Origin: an uncultured bacterium
Lineage (GTDB): Bacteria; Actinomycetota; Acidimicrobiia; Spongiisociales; UBA5794
Length of the DNA stretch: 64,000 nucleotides
Direction of reading: 5' to 3'
Assembly: GCA_963801165.1 (NCBI GenBank)
Contig: CAWDDT010000009.1
Span: 96,001 to 160,000, forward strand
Under the pieces are notes generated by a model, which was not told where the DNA came from, did not search any database, and saw nothing but the letters and a program-made list of their open reading frames with translations. The position numbers and the translations under genes were made by a program. Shown in pieces: positions 3,883 to 10,920 of this stretch (positions are counted from its first letter, which is position 1; each line of letters opens with the position of its first letter).

Positions 3883-4154
3883 ACGGATGCCTCAGGAGGC
3901 GATGTCGAGTCGGCCGTGCGGTGGGTGCGATTGGCACTGATCCCGGACGATTCCGCGATGCGATCCCAGAGCGCCTCGGAAACGGGCGGGGCGATTTCGG
4001 GTAGACCGTCTATCAGAACGCCAGCGACCCTTCGGAAAGAGGCGAGCGCGCCTTCGAGATCCGCGGACAGGCCGTGCTCGAAGCTTGCTGCCTCGTCCGC
4101 GGGCAAAGCGTGTACTGCGTGTGTCGCCGCGGTATCCAGCTCAAACCATTCCAT
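3879..4154 (-). CDS. Short anti-sigma factor (RskA N-terminal ASD-like only)
   Basis: Overlaps the ECF sigma stop. A.HAVHAL..DE...FE..L and PP..LWDRI pattern typical of RskA N-termini. No TM segment. Confidence 0.6.
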   Translation of the reverse strand: MEWFELDTAATHAVHALPADEAASFEHGLSADLEGALASFRRVAGVLIDGLPEIAPPVSEALWDRIAESSGISANRTHRTADSTSPPEASV

Positions 4155-4737
4155 GTAGCTCGGTTCCCAGCATGTCGCGAAGTTTCGCCAACCCGGAACG
4201 AATTCGACTCTTCACGGTTCCCTCCGGGACCCCGAGCACTTCGGCGACCTTGCGGTAGGAGTAGCCGAGGTAGAAGGCCATAGCGATCGGTTCCCGCTCG
4301 CTGTCTTTGAGCAGGGTGAGCGCGCTACGTACCCGTTCCGAGGTGATTCTGCTCATCGCTTCCTCTTCGGCGCCGACCTGATGTTCGGATGAGCGCCGCT
4401 CTTCGGCGTTCTCGCGTCGACTGCGAGCCTCTTCGCTGCGGATCAGGTCGATGCTACGCCCGTGTGCGTCGAGTTGGAGGAACGAGGCCAGCGACCCCCG
4501 GTAGGGATCGAAGCGTTCCGGCTTCCGCCACAACCGGACAAACACATCCTGGGTGATGTCCTCGGCGAGCTCTTCGCGTCGCAGGAGCCCGTAGGCGACC
4601 CGGTACACGCGCCGGCCGTGACGGCGGTAGGCCTCGTGGAGGGCGTCGGGGTCGCCAGCGCGGAGCTGTGAGGCGATCGGGGCGTCGTCTTCCCGCCGGG
4701 TGAACGCCGTGTGGTCCTTGTGCAGAGTCTGTGTCAT
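4141..4737 (-). CDS. ECF RNA polymerase sigma factor, SigK-like
   Basis: AEDITQDVFVRLWRKPERFDPYRGS (region 2) and SYRKVAEVLGVPEGTVKSRIRSGL (region 4). GGAGG RBS before ATG 4737. Confidence 0.9.
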   Translation of the reverse strand: MTQTLHKDHTAFTRREDDAPIASQLRAGDPDALHEAYRRHGRRVYRVAYGLLRREELAEDITQDVFVRLWRKPERFDPYRGSLASFLQLDAHGRSIDLIRSEEARSRRENAEERRSSEHQVGAEEEAMSRITSERVRSALTLLKDSEREPIAMAFYLGYSYRKVAEVLGVPEGTVKSRIRSGLAKLRDMLGTELHGMV

Positions 4738-4748
4738 GTCCCTCCGAG

Positions 4749-4762
4749 ATTTAGTACTAAAT
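4749..4762. promoter_or_regulatory. Perfect 14-bp palindrome ATTTAGTACTAAAT, putative operator 1
   Basis: AT-rich perfect dyad just upstream of the sigma gene; a near copy lies at 4847-4860. Confidence 0.65.
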
Positions 4763-4846
4763 AAAGCACAGACTGATGAGATAGTCAAGACCTGAAACTC
4801 AGCCTCTGTGGCCGGAACGTCGGTATAGGCACTTGCATAGCGCGAC

Positions 4847-4860
4847 ATTTGGCACTAAAT
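4847..4860. promoter_or_regulatory. ATTTGGCACTAAAT, putative operator 2
   Basis: 12/14 identical to the palindrome at 4749; ends 9 nt before the regulator ATG. Confidence 0.6.
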
Positions 4861-4869
4861 AGAGGGATC

Positions 4870-5679
4870 ATGAAATCAATGACCCTGCACGAGGTCGCCG
4901 CTGAGTTGGGCGTCCACTACATGACCGTCTACCGATATGTGCGTCTCGGATACCTGGACGCACACAAGGAAGGCGGCACGTGGCGTGTTGAACACCAGGC
5001 ACTCGTCGACTTCAAGAAGCCGCCGGCGGCGGCCGGGCACGGCGATGGCTCGGCCGCCTGGGATCAACGGTTGCTACAACGCCTGCTCGCCGCCGATCAA
5101 GCGGGTGCGTGGAGAGTCGTGGAGGCCGCCCAGGCGTCCGGCAAGGCGCTACGTGAGCTGTACGTCGAGATGGTCATACCCGCCATGTATGCGGTCGGCA
5201 AGAGATGGGAGCAGGGAATCGTGACGGTCGCCGAGGAGCATGCCGCCACGCAAGTGATGATCAGAATCGTGTCGCGTCTATCGGCGCAGATTGCCAGAAG
5301 GGGCATCTCGAAGGGCACCGTCGTCATGGGTACGACGGCCTCAGAGCTTCACGTGCTGCCCCTCATGATCGCCGCCGATCTGATCCGGTGCGAAGGTTTC
5401 GAGGTCCTCGACCTCGGCTGCAGACTCCCGGCAGACTCGTTCGCCGCGACCGCGGCCAAGCAGCAACGGTTGGTTGCTGTCGCGGTGAGCGCCACCTCGC
5501 CCGGTCAGGTCGGTGAGATCCAGGCGACCATCCATGCGTTGCGCAATTCAGTCGATGCGCCCATCTTCCTCGGCGGTGCGGCAATCGACGGTCCTGAACA
5601 CGCCAAGCTGTTGGGCGCCGACATCGGTGCCGCCACCGTCGACGAGGTAATCCCCCGACTACTCAGCCTCGTGGGGTGA
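4870..5679 (+). CDS. Cobalamin-binding transcriptional regulator (CarH/LitR-like; HTH_17/MerR-type HTH plus B12-binding_2 plus B12-binding)
   Basis: N-terminal MTLHEVAAELGVHYMTVYRYVRLG HTH, W-x9-EH motif (WEQGIVTVAEEH), ELHVLP B12 motif, C-terminal GG. Confidence 0.85.
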   Translation: MKSMTLHEVAAELGVHYMTVYRYVRLGYLDAHKEGGTWRVEHQALVDFKKPPAAAGHGDGSAAWDQRLLQRLLAADQAGAWRVVEAAQASGKALRELYVEMVIPAMYAVGKRWEQGIVTVAEEHAATQVMIRIVSRLSAQIARRGISKGTVVMGTTASELHVLPLMIAADLIRCEGFEVLDLGCRLPADSFAATAAKQQRLVAVAVSATSPGQVGEIQATIHALRNSVDAPIFLGGAAIDGPEHAKLLGADIGAATVDEVIPRLLSLVG

Positions 5680-5696: not shown

Positions 5697-5742
5697 TTCT
5701 GGCGTAGCTTGTGCCGGTATCCCGGCACGGTCTACGCACGAA
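5697..5742. repeat. REP-like imperfect hairpin between convergent genes (possible bidirectional terminator)
   Basis: gcgtag-ctt-gtgccgg / ccggcac-ggt-ctacgc arms with TTCTGGCG outer end. Confidence 0.5.
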
Positions 5743-5750
5743 AAGGACTG

Positions 5751-7961
5751 CTAGCCCGCGGCCAGGCCCGCCGCCATCTGGCGGAAGGACTCGAGACCCT
5801 GGGACAGGGACTCGGCCAGGGTGGCCAGCTCGGTCTGGGAGATGTCGATGGAGATGGGGACGTCGAGGTCGACCGGAACCTCCGTCTTGATCGGGATCGT
5901 CTCGTTGACCGGGATGGCGACGGTGAGGTCGATTGGCAGGTCCAGCTTGATCGGCACGGTGATGTTGAGGGGGATATCGATGCCGAACGGTCCGTTGACG
6001 GTAATCGTTGTGTCGAACTGCTCGTCGATGGGGACCGTCGTGTTGATGGGCACCTGGAGGGTCCGGTCGAGCACGATCTCGGTGTCGATCGGCACGGTTT
6101 GGTTGATGCTCACGTCGAAGGTGATCGTCGAGTTGGCGAACTCGTCGATGCCGCTGACTGCATCTCCGAGCGCCGAATCGATTGCCGGCCCCAGCTGGCC
6201 GAGTTTGTCCTGAAAAGCGGTCACCTGCGCCGCGTAGATCGCGGCGCCGCCCTCGACCCGGCTCATGTCCGTGGTGAGTTGCTCTTGCTGCGCCCTGGTC
6301 TCGTTCAGCTCGCTCGACAGTGAGCCAACCCTGGCGACGAGGAACAGCGTCGTCACCACCAGCACCGCAAGCAACACCCCGCCCGCGATGATGATGGGTG
6401 TCAAGTTGCGGTTGGGCTTCATGGGTGCTCCCTCGGCTTGGTCCGTCGCGGCGGGCGGCGATTCCGGTGACATGTGATGGGGGGCCCGGCGCATCATGGT
6501 CGCCACCAGCCAGGCAACGATCAGGACAAATCCGGCTGCGACAAAGGTCTGGGCCATCGCCCTGGTGGTCAGGTCGGCGGAGGCCTCTGCGGCCAGCTTG
6601 CCGTAGTTGGGGTCGCTGAGCGACGGGAGGTCGATCTGGCCGCGTAACTGGTTGAAGCGGTACAGACCCCATGCAGTCAAGCCTGAAAGACCGACGGAGA
6701 GACCGATCAGCCGCATCACCATGACCAGGCTGGCGGCGCTGCCGCGCCGATCGGGCGGGGCGGAATCGACAACTGCCGCGGTGGTGGGCGCCATCACCAG
6801 CCCGAAACCGACTCCGAGGAAGGCGAGTTGCCACGCCATCACCCAGTAGCCGGTGCTGGTGTCCCAGCCGTATCCCATCAGAAGAAAGGCGAGAGACGCC
6901 ACCCCCAGCCCGATCAGCACCGGGGGCCGGTACCAGCGGCTCTCAGTGACCCGGCCGCCGACATACGACGCCAGCGACATCGAAGCCGTCATGGCGCTCA
7001 GCACCCAGCCGGTGATCACCGCGGCGCGCTCCAGATCTACCTCGACCACGTTGATGAACAGCGGGACGTTGACCATGGCGATGGCCAGGGTCCCACCCAG
7101 CAGGAAGTTGACCGACACGGCGGAGACCAGGTTCCGCCCCCGGAACAGGTATGGGTCGATCAGCGGGTCGTCGATTCGTTTTTGCCACCACACGAACGCC
7201 GCTCCGGCGGCGATGGCCAACAGATACAGCCACCGCAATGCGCCCCGGCTGCCGCCGGTGAGCTGTTCGAGGCCGGTGACGCTCTGAATCTGCGCGGGGC
7301 CGAGTAGCGCCAGGTTCAACGAGACCAGCCCGATGGTCAGCAGCGCAGCACCCACCCAGTCGATATGGGCGTGCCGGTCCTCCTCGGGGGCGTCACCGAG
7401 CACGAACCAGCCGGCGACGATGCCGATAATCGCCAGTGGGATGTTGAGGTAGAACTGCCAGCGCCACGCCAGGAAGCGGATGAGCATCGCCCCGTACAGC
7501 GGCCCCCATACCCAACCCAGTGTGTCGATCGCCGCCAGCACCCCGAGCGCCCGTGCCCGGCTGCGTGGCTCGTAGGAGTCGCTGACGGCCGCCATCCCGA
7601 TCGGGACCAGCGCCCCGCCGCCCATTGCCGTCAGCACCCGTCCGACGAGGAAGGGGCCGAGCGTGTGCGTCGTGGGGATGATGACCGAGCCCACGAGGAA
7701 CAACGACAGTGCCCCGATGAACACCCGGCGGCGCCCCAGCACGTCGCTGAGCCGGCCCATGAACGGCATCACCGCCACATAGGCAATCAGGTAGACGTTG
7801 ACGATCCAGGCGGCATCGCCGATACCGTCGGGCAGCACGATGTTGAGGTCGTTGATGATCGGCCGCAGCATCGTCGTCACCACGGTCAGGTCGTCGGCGG
7901 CGATGAAGATGCCAAAGGCGACGACGATCAGGATGGCGCGAGGTGAGGCCAGCTTTCTCAT
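5751..7961 (-). CDS. DHA2-type MFS transporter (Rv1410c/P55-like) fused to a C-terminal TM, coiled-coil and beta-rich domain
   Basis: D.TVV.T.L, W.V..YL..Y...MP..GRLSD..GRR, GPLYG and WRWQFYLNIPL motifs, then about 220 extra residues in frame. Confidence 0.85.
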   Translation of the reverse strand: MRKLASPRAILIVVAFGIFIAADDLTVVTTMLRPIINDLNIVLPDGIGDAAWIVNVYLIAYVAVMPFMGRLSDVLGRRRVFIGALSLFLVGSVIIPTTHTLGPFLVGRVLTAMGGGALVPIGMAAVSDSYEPRSRARALGVLAAIDTLGWVWGPLYGAMLIRFLAWRWQFYLNIPLAIIGIVAGWFVLGDAPEEDRHAHIDWVGAALLTIGLVSLNLALLGPAQIQSVTGLEQLTGGSRGALRWLYLLAIAAGAAFVWWQKRIDDPLIDPYLFRGRNLVSAVSVNFLLGGTLAIAMVNVPLFINVVEVDLERAAVITGWVLSAMTASMSLASYVGGRVTESRWYRPPVLIGLGVASLAFLLMGYGWDTSTGYWVMAWQLAFLGVGFGLVMAPTTAAVVDSAPPDRRGSAASLVMVMRLIGLSVGLSGLTAWGLYRFNQLRGQIDLPSLSDPNYGKLAAEASADLTTRAMAQTFVAAGFVLIVAWLVATMMRRAPHHMSPESPPAATDQAEGAPMKPNRNLTPIIIAGGVLLAVLVVTTLFLVARVGSLSSELNETRAQQEQLTTDMSRVEGGAAIYAAQVTAFQDKLGQLGPAIDSALGDAVSGIDEFANSTITFDVSINQTVPIDTEIVLDRTLQVPINTTVPIDEQFDTTITVNGPFGIDIPLNITVPIKLDLPIDLTVAIPVNETIPIKTEVPVDLDVPISIDISQTELATLAESLSQGLESFRQMAAGLAAG

Positions 7962-7965
7962 TGCG

Positions 7966-8673
7966 CTAGCTCCCGGTGTCGGGCGGTGTTATCTCGACCG
8001 GCTTGCCAAACTCGGAGAACTCGATGAGCCAGTCGGTCGTTTGACCCTCGAAAACTGTGGGAAGTTCCGCTTCTCGCACATACCCCGTCTCGGGGTCGAT
8101 CCACATGTCGAGCTCGACGGGTTGCTTGTCGATCAGTCCGGCGAGGATAAGCGCTACCCGGTCCTCGTCGGCGGTGGCCCGGATGTGGTAGCGCGGCGCC
8201 CCGTTGTGATCTTCCGCGCCGATCCACACGACGTCGCTGAGACCCTCGGCGAGCAGGGGTCGCCAGCCCTCCTCCGGGTCGAACAGCGTCGCCGGGTCGA
8301 ACTCGTATCCCGCGGGCGCTTCTTCCCAGTCACCGGAAATAGGGTTGGTCAGCCAGGTCTGACCGTTGATGGCGATCGCCCCGATCTGGGCGTTGATGTT
8401 GCCGACCGCGAGCGTCACCACCGCGTCGGCGGAGCTCGGTGCGGCGAATTGGCCCTCGGCGAGCTTGAAGTTGAGGGTGTCCAGCGGGTCGATGTAGACG
8501 GGAGCTCCGCTTCTCTCGATCTTGAACCTGACGTAGTCGATGGTTCCCATCGCCTGGGCGGCGGCGTCGAGCACCGGCCCCGGTTCGGGGGGGAGTGTGG
8601 TCGCCGGTGCCGCCCCACCGCACGACGAGGCGAAGAGAGTGGCCGCAACCAGAAGACGCCACGCGGTTTTCAT
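7966..8673 (-). CDS. LppX/LprAFG family lipoprotein (LprG-like)
   Basis: Lipobox LFASS-C, FDPATLFDPEEG, G.E..NG...YHIRA, C-terminal FSEFGKPVEITPP; directly upstream of the P55-like MFS. Confidence 0.8.
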   Translation of the reverse strand: MKTAWRLLVAATLFASSCGGAAPATTLPPEPGPVLDAAAQAMGTIDYVRFKIERSGAPVYIDPLDTLNFKLAEGQFAAPSSADAVVTLAVGNINAQIGAIAINGQTWLTNPISGDWEEAPAGYEFDPATLFDPEEGWRPLLAEGLSDVVWIGAEDHNGAPRYHIRATADEDRVALILAGLIDKQPVELDMWIDPETGYVREAELPTVFEGQTTDWLIEFSEFGKPVEITPPDTGS

Positions 8674-9686: not shown

Positions 9687-9878
9687 CTACCGGTCGTCAC
9701 GGTCCCCGGTCCGGCCCCCGACCCCGGACAGCACTCCGATCCCGAGGGCGATGAGCAGGAGCGGCCAGAGCGTTGTCGGGGACAGTTCGTAGAGGCCGAG
9801 CGCCTCGAGCAAGAACATCACCCCCAATGCGAGGAAGACGATGCCGGATACAAGCGTGCGACGCTGGCTCGGTGTCAT
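9687..9878 (-). CDS. Small membrane protein (LiaF-TM/DUF5668-like)
   Basis: G..F..LG..FLL and LWPLLLIALG; ATGA coupling with the upstream gene. Confidence 0.7.
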   Translation of the reverse strand: MTPSQRRTLVSGIVFLALGVMFLLEALGLYELSPTTLWPLLLIALGIGVLSGVGGRTGDRDDR

Positions 9879-10516
9879 CGGTATACCTCTACCTTTCCGA
9901 CTCCGACCCGTGCGTCGATGATCAACCGGTTGGACGCCTCCGCGAAGCCCGGATCGACTGCCTGCTGCTCGATGCTGACCCCATCCTGGAGGGAGTCGAG
10001 CAAAACCAACTCACCCGCCGCCGCCCTGCCGTCGATGGACACGGCGACGTCCGGGCCGATCCCGTCGATGACGATCCTCCCAAAGGTGACGCCCACGGAG
10101 AGTTGAGTCTCCCCGGCCGGGAAAACCACGTCGTCAAGGTGGAGAAGCAACTCCCCGGCGACCAGGTGGTAGTCGGCATCGAGCGTCTCGATCGTCGGCT
10201 GGTAGCTGCGATTCCCGACACCGCCCGAAAGCGGGACGGAAAACGCGGCGCTGAATGTGCTCATCAGCGCCAGGATGATCGACAGTGCGATGCCCGCACC
10301 GAACAAACCTTCCGGGCGATCCTCACGGTTTGAGGCCGCGACCATGACGATCCCGACAATGGCGAGAACGGCCGCAATGAGGGCTCGCCACGGAACGTCG
10401 GCGATGTCGAGAGCGCCAAGCAGCCACCCGGAGCCAACCACGACGAGGATGGCTCCCCAGACCAGCGGTCCGTAGGCGATGGTCCGGGCGTGCTCGGGCG
10501 AGTACGGATCTCTCAT
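9875..10516 (-). CDS. LiaF/DUF2154-like cell-envelope stress protein
   Basis: N-terminal TMs plus C-terminal beta domain (GELLLHL, FGRIVI, VGVGKVEV). Confidence 0.7.
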   Translation of the reverse strand: MRDPYSPEHARTIAYGPLVWGAILVVVGSGWLLGALDIADVPWRALIAAVLAIVGIVMVAASNREDRPEGLFGAGIALSIILALMSTFSAAFSVPLSGGVGNRSYQPTIETLDADYHLVAGELLLHLDDVVFPAGETQLSVGVTFGRIVIDGIGPDVAVSIDGRAAAGELVLLDSLQDGVSIEQQAVDPGFAEASNRLIIDARVGVGKVEVYR

Positions 10517-10920
10517 TTCTTCAGCGAGTAGATGATCACCCCGGTGCCTGCCGCGATCAGTACGGCCGGGAGCCAGAGATCCTTCATCCAGGGCAGGTAC
10601 CTATTGGCCAGCATCGACGTGCCCCCGAGGATGAGCAGACCGCCCAGGATGATCTTGCCGTTGTCACCTGTCGAGACGGCCCGCACCCGGGTTGCCGTGT
10701 CGTTGTCGGCTTCCGGGATCGCGATCCAGGCAATGATGTAGAGGGGCACGCCCGGGCCGAGGAATAGCAGGACGAGCCAGGCGAGCCGCACCCATGCCGG
10801 GTCGATGTTGAGGTAGGCCGCCATGCCACCGGCGACGCCGGCCACCATCCGATCGCCCCGACTCCGGGTCAGCCGCGCCGGCTGGGTCGGTTGTTGGGTC
10901 ACTTCAGCCTCCCTGGACAC
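10513..10920 (-). CDS. PspC domain-containing membrane protein
   Basis: LTRSRGDRMVAGVAGGMAAYLNIDPAWVRL...LYIIAWIAIPE. Confidence 0.9.
   Translation of the reverse strand: MSREAEVTQQPTQPARLTRSRGDRMVAGVAGGMAAYLNIDPAWVRLAWLVLLFLGPGVPLYIIAWIAIPEADNDTATRVRAVSTGDNGKIILGGLLILGGTSMLANRYLPWMKDLWLPAVLIAAGTGVIIYSLKK

Follow-up and report, generated by a model that had tools for sequence, protein, structure and literature searches.

For envelopes of the Gram-positive type, the route by which hydrophobic molecules get out of the cytoplasmic membrane and through a thick wall is still a matter of debate. At the locus considered here, a long amphipathic stalk is attached to the C-terminus of an exporter that resembles the mycobacterial pump Rv1410. 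All coordinates below refer to the window, i.e., the whole stretch of 64,000 nucleotides of an uncultured Acidimicrobiia bacterium that was analysed. The locus is a two-gene operon, consisting of an lprG-like gene and a gene for an Rv1410-like MFS transporter, which carries a captured envelope module at its C-terminus. The first gene (7966..8673, (-)) encodes a 235-aa LprG-like protein, which matches PF07161 LppX_LprAFG (Pfam, E 8.3e-21) and whose N-terminus reads as a signal peptide with a lipobox-like FASS|C at its end. Its stop codon is separated by 5 nt from the ATG of the second gene, a single open frame of 736 aa plus stop (5751..7961, (-)). Contigs of two runs from two studies span the junction between the MFS and stalk parts without indels, which rules out an assembly error as the origin of the in-frame fusion. 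The source sample may be one of these two runs.

That the lipoprotein is followed by a P55-like MFS protein, as the sequence-only reading had proposed, was borne out by the profile and structure searches. The core of the transporter (residues 1-487; 6501..7961, (-)), assigned from the match to 8pnl and the AlphaFold2 (AF2) model, is of the Rv1410/P55-like DHA2 type with 14 TM helices; TM11 and TM12 are long (H403-440 and H453-487 in the full-length AF2 model, 38 and 35 residues) and are predicted to have periplasmic helical extensions. The MFS_1 match (Pfam) spans residues 15-424 of the 736-aa protein, and the nearest solved structure is 8pnl, that of the Rv1410 homologue MHAS2168 (E 6.6e-44, query residues 15-461), with which the AWGLYRFNQ segment of the pump aligns. 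The second-best solved match of the core is EfpA (E 1e-22), and TIGR00711 (NCBIfam) matched the protein with E 3.3e-53, below the curated cut-off of this family. D24, R108, and R417 are invariant among 52 orthologues; the first two align with D35 and R118 of MHAS2168 and correspond to the carboxylate-arginine pair D22-R108 in Rv1410 numbering. The functional roles of D22, R108, E147, and R417 in Rv1410 are treated in passages of PMC10576003. As to the ion-lock site E147-R417, its arginine is aligned and invariant, whereas the Glu column of Rv1410 is occupied by an invariant threonine (T147) in the Acidimicrobiia pump, with an acid one residue before it, at position 146 (D here, E in the consensus).

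The LprG-Rv1410 (P27-P55) pair, which exports triacylglycerides and lipoglycans in mycobacteria, shares with this operon the order of genes, an LppX_LprAFG lipoprotein followed by a DHA2 MFS, and both pumps have 14 TM helices, of which TM11 and TM12 are long, and the equivalents of D22, R108, and R417. In the Rv1410 model, the MFS protein extracts the lipid and hands it over to LprG; the step after the hand-off from Rv1410 to LprG in mycobacteria is not described in the passages of PMC10576003 consulted. The Acidimicrobiia pump differs from the Rv1410 type in having an extra, 15th TM helix and an extracytoplasmic stalk of ~190 aa. The 543-residue chain of 8pnl has no counterpart of the stalk, and its alignment stops at query residue 461, in agreement with the earlier statement that Rv1410 has no such extension. 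In the Acidimicrobiia protein the core is followed by a cytoplasmic low-complexity linker (residues 488-519; 6405..6500, (-)), which is disordered in the full-length AF2 model (pLDDT <50 over residues 500-517) and in the orthologues can be as short as 7 or as long as 238 aa. TM15 (residues 520-543; 6333..6404, (-)) is the hydrophobic stretch LTPIIIAGGVLLAVLVVTTLFLVA; coming after 14 TM helices and having K515 and R518 on its cytoplasmic side, it is predicted to carry the remaining chain to the outside of the cell.

The extracytoplasmic part was modeled by AF2 as a helical stalk (residues 544-609, kinked at 588-590; 6135..6332, (-)), an amphipathic beta-hairpin (residues 612-656 and 662-706 with the turn 657-661; 5844..6128, (-)), and a C-terminal helix (residues 711-735; 5757..5831, (-)). 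The full-length model (pLDDT 77.3; 47-84 in the hairpin) comprises 14 TM helices, the disordered segment 488-519, H520-587, H591-609, E612-656, E662-706, and H711-735, and the model of the module (residues 514-736, 57 homologues; pLDDT 88.7, pTM 0.46) contains, in its own numbering, a helix at 7-96, strands at 99-143 and 149-193, and a helix at 198-222. The ~190 residues outside the cell should thus form a helix of ~10 nm and a two-stranded beta-ribbon of ~15 nm. The sequence-only reading had described a TM helix, a coiled coil, two arms of about 45 residues around NGPFG (the turn G657-I661 follows N656), and a closing helix; all of these recur in the models except the coiled coil, which is unconfirmed, a long helix being predicted in its place.

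The hydrophobic/polar alternation of the hairpin, also pointed out previously, is far beyond chance: hydrophobic residues occupy 36 of 44 even positions and 1 of 46 odd ones, and across 57 homologues the content of V/I/L/M/F/W is 73-91% at even and 3-8% at odd positions. All 10 hairpin prolines are at odd positions, that is, on the polar face. The predicted hairpin fold is supported, besides AF2, by an independent covariation scan, in which the anti-diagonals 290, 292, and 294, corresponding to the arm-to-arm register, had values of 0.043, 0.040, and 0.026 (background, -0.0005 +/- 0.010), and 18 of the 30 strongest covarying pairs fell on these three anti-diagonals. The strongest pair of all is R633-E687, both residues being invariant among 52 orthologues; in the hairpin this pair sits on the hydrophobic face. 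Weak antiparallel covariation was detected between the C-terminal helix and module residues 60-96, and this helix probably packs antiparallel on the pre-hairpin helix.

The stalk module is a separate, sizeable and uncharacterised family of envelope proteins (1042 cluster representatives), whose architecture has no solved counterpart. It has no match in Pfam, NCBIfam or PDB: among the PDB sequences only vimentin coiled-coil noise was retrieved (E 0.64), the NCBIfam matches were sub-threshold and coiled-coil-like (e.g., FtsL, E 0.014), and in the 736-aa protein no Pfam family besides the MFS types was found at E <= 0.01. HlyD-type lipoyl, beta-barrel, and alpha-hairpin domains are absent according to Pfam and NCBIfam searches with both the 736-aa protein and residues 500-736. 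The MCE domain was likewise absent from the Pfam and NCBIfam results, and the region following TM15 is helical in the AF2 model. An LEA_2/WHy-like module was considered and rejected, there being no LEA_2 profile match, an extended hairpin in the AF2 model, and no fold-back covariation. Matches in the ESM Atlas are unnamed "hypothetical protein" clusters of Actinomycetota, Chloroflexota, and Verrucomicrobiota. A non-exhaustive literature search returned nothing relevant on LprG of Acidimicrobiia or on the stalk domain.

In Acidimicrobiia, the distribution of the module supports its tight association with the LprG/MFS pair. Related loci were searched for with a 16-row alignment, and 76 species-level loci were compared: the module is fused in frame to an MFS at 55 of them, in several families, and an Rv1410-like MFS lies directly upstream at 8 more, LprG being upstream in 49 of the 55 fused and 7 of the 8 split loci; since related loci are kin, these counts overstate the independent support. 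In a scan of the class, seven of 11 relatives had the fusion, and in one the module was an ORF of its own that overlaps the stop codon of the MFS gene. Seven split genes make up one clade (99% SH-aLRT) nested within the fused forms, and the two forms interconvert yet remain adjacent. The metagenomic protein P0110 is a topologically coherent LprG-TM-MFS-TM-stalk triple fusion, and at two loci (L043 and L055) the module stands behind an unrelated TetA(P)-like MFS, without LprG. The genome studied here harbors a single copy of the module. It is absent from 18 of 28 LprG-bearing Acidimicrobiia genomes, and 11 of the 14 LprG loci examined in module-less genomes contain a plain LprG-MFS pair, which means that the pump does not need the stalk. 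In one Acidimicrobiia genus the module is found among genes of pirin, DUF6982, subtilase, and an ABC exporter; PF07161 was not found in two of three genomes of this genus.

Outside Acidimicrobiia the picture is different. Of 201 Anaerolineae genomes sampled, 75 (37%) carry the module in stand-alone form, but no MFS or LprG gene occurs within 1.5 kb of it at any of 25 loci; none of 10 neighbors scanned with Pfam is an MFS, and an all-against-all BLAST of the ORFs in the 1.5-kb flanks revealed no conserved neighbor. The module is therefore not specific to LprG/MFS: it forms a large family in its own right, whose members elsewhere mostly stand alone without linkage to these genes. The co-occurrence with LprG/MFS that the sequence-only reading had proposed to examine is seen within Acidimicrobiia, at the fused and adjacent loci, and there in part, given the plain pairs; it was not seen at the Anaerolineae loci scanned.

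The stalk is best read as an accessory extracytoplasmic module recruited to MFS exporters. The natural fusions name a candidate for a third part of the export system, since in them an Rv1410-like pump, and once LprG as well, is physically joined to the amphipathic stalk. From the disordered cytoplasmic linker the chain would pass through TM15 to the helix and the beta-ribbon outside the cell, the closing helix returning to the base. As the hydrophobic face of the hairpin cannot stay exposed to water, the stalks should associate through that face, and the product may be a rod or a narrow tube. Tentatively, we regard it as possible that such self-associating stalks provide a hydrophobic route from the periplasmic exit of the pump toward the outer layers of the wall, or a rail along this stretch on which LprG docks. 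In this way a bacterium that has no mycomembrane could move lipid off its membrane surface once the MFS protein has extracted it and passed it to LprG along the lines of the Rv1410 model. The added VPI units by which the hairpins of homologues differ in length fit an extended rod. Against this reading count the single copy of the module in this genome, its mostly unlinked occurrence elsewhere, the plain LprG-MFS pairs, the pLDDT of 47-84 in the hairpin, and the threonine in the Glu column of the ion lock. A four-copy prediction of residues 546-736, made without control runs, gave an ipSAE of 0.01 in both runs, which counts neither for nor against self-association.

The gene also contains a putative separate start of the stalk (6420..6434, (-)), consisting of the SD-like GAGGGAG (6434-6428), a 5-nt spacer, and the ATG of M514 (6422-6420), the position at which the stand-alone homologues have their N-terminus. 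A start with an SD no more than 30 codons from TM15 is present at 29 of 46 fused loci (24 with ATG), vs. 93 of 726 control windows (18 with ATG). The conserved internal SD and start suggest that a free stalk subunit is probably made alongside the fusion; with free stalks supplied beside the fused one, several stalks per pump would be possible. If the internal start is used, one gene yields the subunit in two forms, tethered and free.

A rather unlikely, albeit serious, alternative is that the stalk is a structural pillar or spacer, i.e., a rigid wall-spanning element that anchors or positions membrane proteins or touches a sheath or S-layer, conducts no lipid along its length, and in Acidimicrobiia only tethers or localises the pump. 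The mostly stand-alone occurrence of the family with variable neighbors, in Anaerolineae and some Acidimicrobiia, would be natural for such a pillar, as would the ruler-like variation of arm length (the hairpins of homologues differ by added VPI units, and some are doubled), the conserved prolines, which may make the ribbon stiffer and shield its edges, and the existence of sister families whose LprG-MFS pairs work without a stalk. However, a continuous face of ~44 large hydrophobic positions needs a hydrophobic partner, and the capture of the module by two unrelated MFS exporters, together with the triple fusion with LprG, points to a role in an export route rather than to generic anchoring.

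It is improbable that many hairpins close into a beta-barrel, as the stems of pore-forming toxins or the FliF/SpoIIIAG rings do, and thereby perforate an outer envelope layer. The nearest Foldseek neighbors of the module are indeed proteins that build barrels from long hairpins (phi29 and Andhra tail proteins, lysenin, the anthrax PA pore, aerolysin, FliF, and SpoIIIAG), and the alternation of the hairpin is strictly two-residue; toxin stems and phage tail tubes share with the stalk very long two-stranded hairpins of alternating polarity. Nevertheless, not one of these matches rises above chance (best E 0.018, TM-scores <=0.20, none at E <= 0.001), and the stalk differs from those proteins by a full-length hydrophobic stripe and a proline-rich polar face. 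The stripe covers the whole 15 nm, far exceeding any membrane, and ten outward-facing prolines would remove backbone NH groups required for strand bonding between subunits, so that the weakened edge-to-edge hydrogen bonding suggested by the proline positions argues against a classical closed barrel. The host genome, which is 98% complete, yielded no Emb-type arabinosyltransferase. It has one WS/DGAT gene, which gives some context for the substrate of the exporter. This gene content fits a lineage that has no mycomembrane, as had been supposed, and may still be able to make neutral lipid.

Even less probable is a compact monomeric beta-sandwich, LEA_2-like or other, in which the hairpin would fold onto itself or onto the helices so as to hide its hydrophobic face within the chain. 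A two-stranded ribbon standing by itself would be uncommon, and a few covarying pairs link the base (95 and 198) to positions 134-138 (module numbering), but the within-arm fold-back and helix-arm diagonals reach only 0.010-0.018 vs. 0.043 for arm-to-arm pairing, both AF2 models contain continuous 45-residue strands, homologues with a short helix retain the full hairpin while others double its length, and Pfam gave no match beyond MFS at E <= 0.01; the extension is accordingly predicted to be extended and extracytoplasmic, as first proposed. Finally, an incidental fusion, in which loss of a stop codon lets the MFS frame read through into an unrelated downstream gene, is barely credible, for although the internal SD and ATG are retained and stand-alone forms of the module exist, the in-frame fusion is kept at 55 of 76 loci, which belong to several families and have linkers of 7-238 aa, changes between the fused and the split form leave the two parts side by side, the topology with its odd extra TM helix is coherent, and the LprG-MFS-stalk triple fusion exists.

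Returning to the accessory stalk recruited to an exporter, a bolder version of it would be a trans-wall lipid conduit of a new kind, found in bacteria that have no outer membrane. Several membrane-anchored hairpins, the one on the pump and others from the internal start, would come together with their hydrophobic faces wrapped into a 15-nm tube or rail standing on a 10-nm helical pedestal and loaded by the MFS protein and LprG, R633-E687 would act as a gate or an inter-subunit lock, and the stand-alone proteins of Anaerolineae would be the same device with other partners. We consider this version decidedly unlikely in its entirety; the ectodomain, being small and soluble, makes the conduit idea testable.

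Among known systems, EmrA of EmrAB-TolC is the periplasmic adaptor (membrane fusion) protein of an MFS pump, EmrB, chains of which are among the solved matches of the Acidimicrobiia protein. Like the stalk, the EmrA-type adaptors are single-TM-anchored, elongated extracytoplasmic partners of DHA2-type MFS transporters, encoded beside the pump, and both may exceed the pump in copy number. However, no homology between them was found, the elongated element is a beta-hairpin in the stalk and an alpha-hairpin in EmrA, and, unlike EmrAB-TolC, the stalk has no known outer-membrane channel partner. In Mce1, according to passages of PMC9882608, a six-helix-bundle needle is driven by an ABC importer, and at the tip six highly tilted strands make up a barrel that is hydrophobic inside. 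The stalk, in contrast, has no MCE domain and is a beta ribbon on an MFS exporter, its oligomer being hypothetical; still, both it and the Mce1 needle/portal are membrane-anchored and might provide a hydrophobic route through the envelope.

Two closely spaced genes were read as open reading frames on the minus strand of the window. The first (7966-8673) encodes a protein of 235 aa with a match to PF07161 (LppX_LprAFG, E = 8.3e-21) and a signal peptide ending FASS before C, while the second (5751-7961) begins 5 nt past the stop of the first and encodes 736 aa. Residues 15-424 of the latter match MFS_1 of Pfam, and its top solved relative in the PDB sequence search is 8pnl, the structure of the Rv1410 homologue MHAS2168 (E = 6.6e-44, residues 15-461), after which rank EfpA, QacA and EmrB, each at about 1e-22. 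These matches bear out the sequence-only reading of an LppX/LprAFG lipoprotein gene followed by a P55-like MFS with a C-terminal extension. PMC10576003 names as functional the Rv1410 residues D22, R108 and R417, which are D35, R118 and R426 in MHAS2168; in the window protein the aligned residues are D24, R108 and R417, each invariant among 52 orthologues. As to E147, the fourth functional residue of Rv1410, its column holds an invariant T147 in the window protein, with an acidic residue one position before.

For residues 500-736, neither Pfam nor NCBIfam gave a family above threshold, and no sequence of the PDB matched. The AlphaFold2 model of residues 514-736, the stalk module, built with 57 homologues (pLDDT 88.7), consists of a long helix (module residues 7-96, M514 being residue 1), two strands of 45 residues each (99-143 and 149-193) and a last helix (198-222). 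The full-length model, for which 52 fused orthologues were the input (pLDDT 77.3, pTM 0.69), shows 14 TM helices, with TM11 (403-440) and TM12 (453-487) being long, then a disordered linker (488-519), helices at 520-587 and 591-609, hairpin strands at 612-656 and 662-706, and a closing helix at 711-735; confidence in the hairpin is only 47-84 here. Since 14 TM helices leave the C-terminus of the MFS in the cytoplasm, helix 15 (520-543) should carry all later residues outside the cell. Judging by residue counts, the helix of the stalk would measure about 10 nm and the hairpin about 15 nm. Foldseek retrieved no match in the PDB at E <= 0.001 (best E 0.018, no TM-score above 0.20), the chance-level neighbours of the module being long-hairpin barrel formers.

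The hairpin is also visible in covariation, calculated as APC-corrected mutual information over 249 non-redundant family members. The antiparallel arm-to-arm diagonals i+j = 290, 292 and 294 score 0.043, 0.040 and 0.026 and alone rise above the background (-0.0005 +/- 0.010), 292 being the AlphaFold2 register; they account for 18 of the top 30 long-range pairs, and no fold-back diagonal inside an arm or from helix to arm exceeds 0.018 in the same set. The top pair (0.34) is formed by module residues 120 and 174, i.e., R633 (6063-6065) and E687 (5901-5903), invariant in the 52 fused orthologues and among the few polar residues of the hydrophobic face of the hairpin; this pair may serve as a lock or gate. 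Among the 57 homologues, even hairpin positions are V/I/L/M/F/W in 73-91% of cases, and odd ones are hydrophobic in 3-8%, polar in 64-75% and proline in 14-30%. In the window protein itself, 36 of 44 even positions are hydrophobic versus 1 of 46 odd ones, and all ten prolines (10/10) are odd. The extended amphipathic hairpin proposed earlier is well supported by predicted strands, covariation and residue pattern. We infer that the prolines occupy outward-pointing, non-bonded sites of an antiparallel ribbon and protect its edges, which would make a classical hydrogen-bonded barrel less likely and packing via the hydrophobic face more so. Any particular assembly state of the stalk, and any lipid-conducting role such as the previously suggested trans-envelope conduit, would be conjectural.

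The module makes up an envelope protein family in its own right, as yet uncharacterised. A word-indexed search revealed 101 relatives, many of them complete proteins of 210-230 aa on long contigs, and a profile search across 1.84 billion representatives gave 1042 matches at E <= 1e-3, of which 562 reach E <= 1e-10 and 111 reach E <= 1e-30. None of the six shorter members scanned contains a Pfam domain, and the Atlas neighbours are clusters without names. In some homologues the beta region is about twice as long, or a single open frame contains several profile matches; one or the other was seen in the metagenomic proteins P0201 and P0210 and at G303:C62, G367:C21 and G466:C177. Added VPI-type units appear to account for the differences in hairpin length.

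Regarding the link with LprG and MFS, 76 species-level loci were analyzed, almost entirely from Acidimicrobiia MAGs. The module is in frame with an Rv1410-like MFS at 55 of them (LprG upstream at 49), follows a directly upstream MFS in another frame or ORF at eight (LprG at seven), and has no Rv1410-like MFS within the flank at seven; six were not evaluable, and LprG lies upstream at 0/7 and 0/6 of the last two groups. Two of the seven, the tree sisters L043 (4638-6633) and L055 (4461-6633), carry the module directly after an MFS that resembles TetA(P)/Tet(40) and is not related to the Rv1410 type, and LprG was found at neither. A MerR-TipAS regulator adjoins the module-MFS pair at L043. Among 11 class-scan relatives, seven are fused, one has its own ORF, which overlaps the stop of the MFS gene, another lies 2 kb downstream past two opposite-strand genes, and two, of one genus, lie amid pirin, DUF6982, subtilase and ABC-exporter genes. 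PF07161 was not found in two of the three genomes of this lone-module genus. A DUF6982 gene and a pirin gene enclose the module in both genomes examined (L023:6024-6485 and L025:6815-7201), with two subtilases close by and, at L023, also an ABC exporter. With Anaerolineae as the root, a quick maximum-likelihood tree requires at least seven transitions between fused, split and stand-alone modules, and a split clade of seven genes (SH-aLRT 99%) is nested among fused ones. In the metagenomic P0110 (1056 aa), a single chain runs from a lipoprotein LprG domain through an extra TM helix, MFS, linker and another TM helix to the stalk. MFS exporters of Acidimicrobiia have acquired the module repeatedly, once with LprG in one chain.

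However, the module is neither universal nor obligatory in LprG-MFS systems, so that the earlier tie to this pair holds only in part: against the fused loci and the triple fusion stand LprG loci with a plain pair. Among 301 sampled Acidimicrobiia genomes the module (single-protein query) occurs in 13 and LprG in 28: both in 10, module only in three, LprG only in 18. Of 14 LprG-only loci fetched, 11 have an Rv1410-like MFS (45-65% identity) ending soon after TM14 and one more has a distant pair; no module HMM match at E <= 1 was found in the 8.5-13 kb fetched around LprG at these 14. A phylum scan of 401 genomes gave strong matches only in the five Acidimicrobiia genomes with matches, and a single partial one (30 bits) outside this class. 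In the class of L103, a locus labelled Anaerolineae, 75 of 201 genomes have 1-4 copies each, in open frames that mostly measure 170-280 aa and combine a TM helix with a shorter helix and a full hairpin; at 25 such loci neither MFS nor LprG was found within 1.5 kb, no neighbour is conserved, and none of ten neighbours scanned is an MFS.

The motif GAGGGAG with a 5-nt spacer precedes M514, and stand-alone homologues start at the equivalent position. Linkers of fused orthologues (7-238 aa) are otherwise unconserved. In 29 of 46 fused orthologues (24 ATG), a start codon accompanied by an SD-like motif lies within 30 codons of TM15, compared with 93 of 726 thirty-codon control windows of MFS cores (18 ATG), counts that are suggestive rather than a statistic because the loci are kin. 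Such an internal start would fit a free stalk made beside the fusion.

The MFS-stalk junction is spanned by contigs of two sequencing runs, X1 (5713-7178) and X2 (5700-7004), with no indels listed and, for X2, zero differences from the window. In run X6, a single contig of low depth connects 6182 with 6360; the 177 nt that it skips in frame would, in a related strain, shorten the extracytoplasmic helix by about 59 residues. The genome (completeness 98%) has one WS/DGAT gene and several MMPL genes; an Emb-type arabinosyltransferase was not found in it, the control being matched in Corynebacterium. A gene for an ECF-type sigma-70 factor, 4141-4848(-), stands back to back with a regulator gene, 4849-5679(+), which encodes a MerR-HTH and a two-part B12-binding region (CarH-like by domain content) and converges on the MFS-stalk gene, ending 72 nt from its stop. 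The lprG-like gene has, about 1.2 kb upstream, two envelope-stress genes on the minus strand, PspC-domain (10513-10920) and LiaF-like (9875-10516), which overlap by 4 nt.
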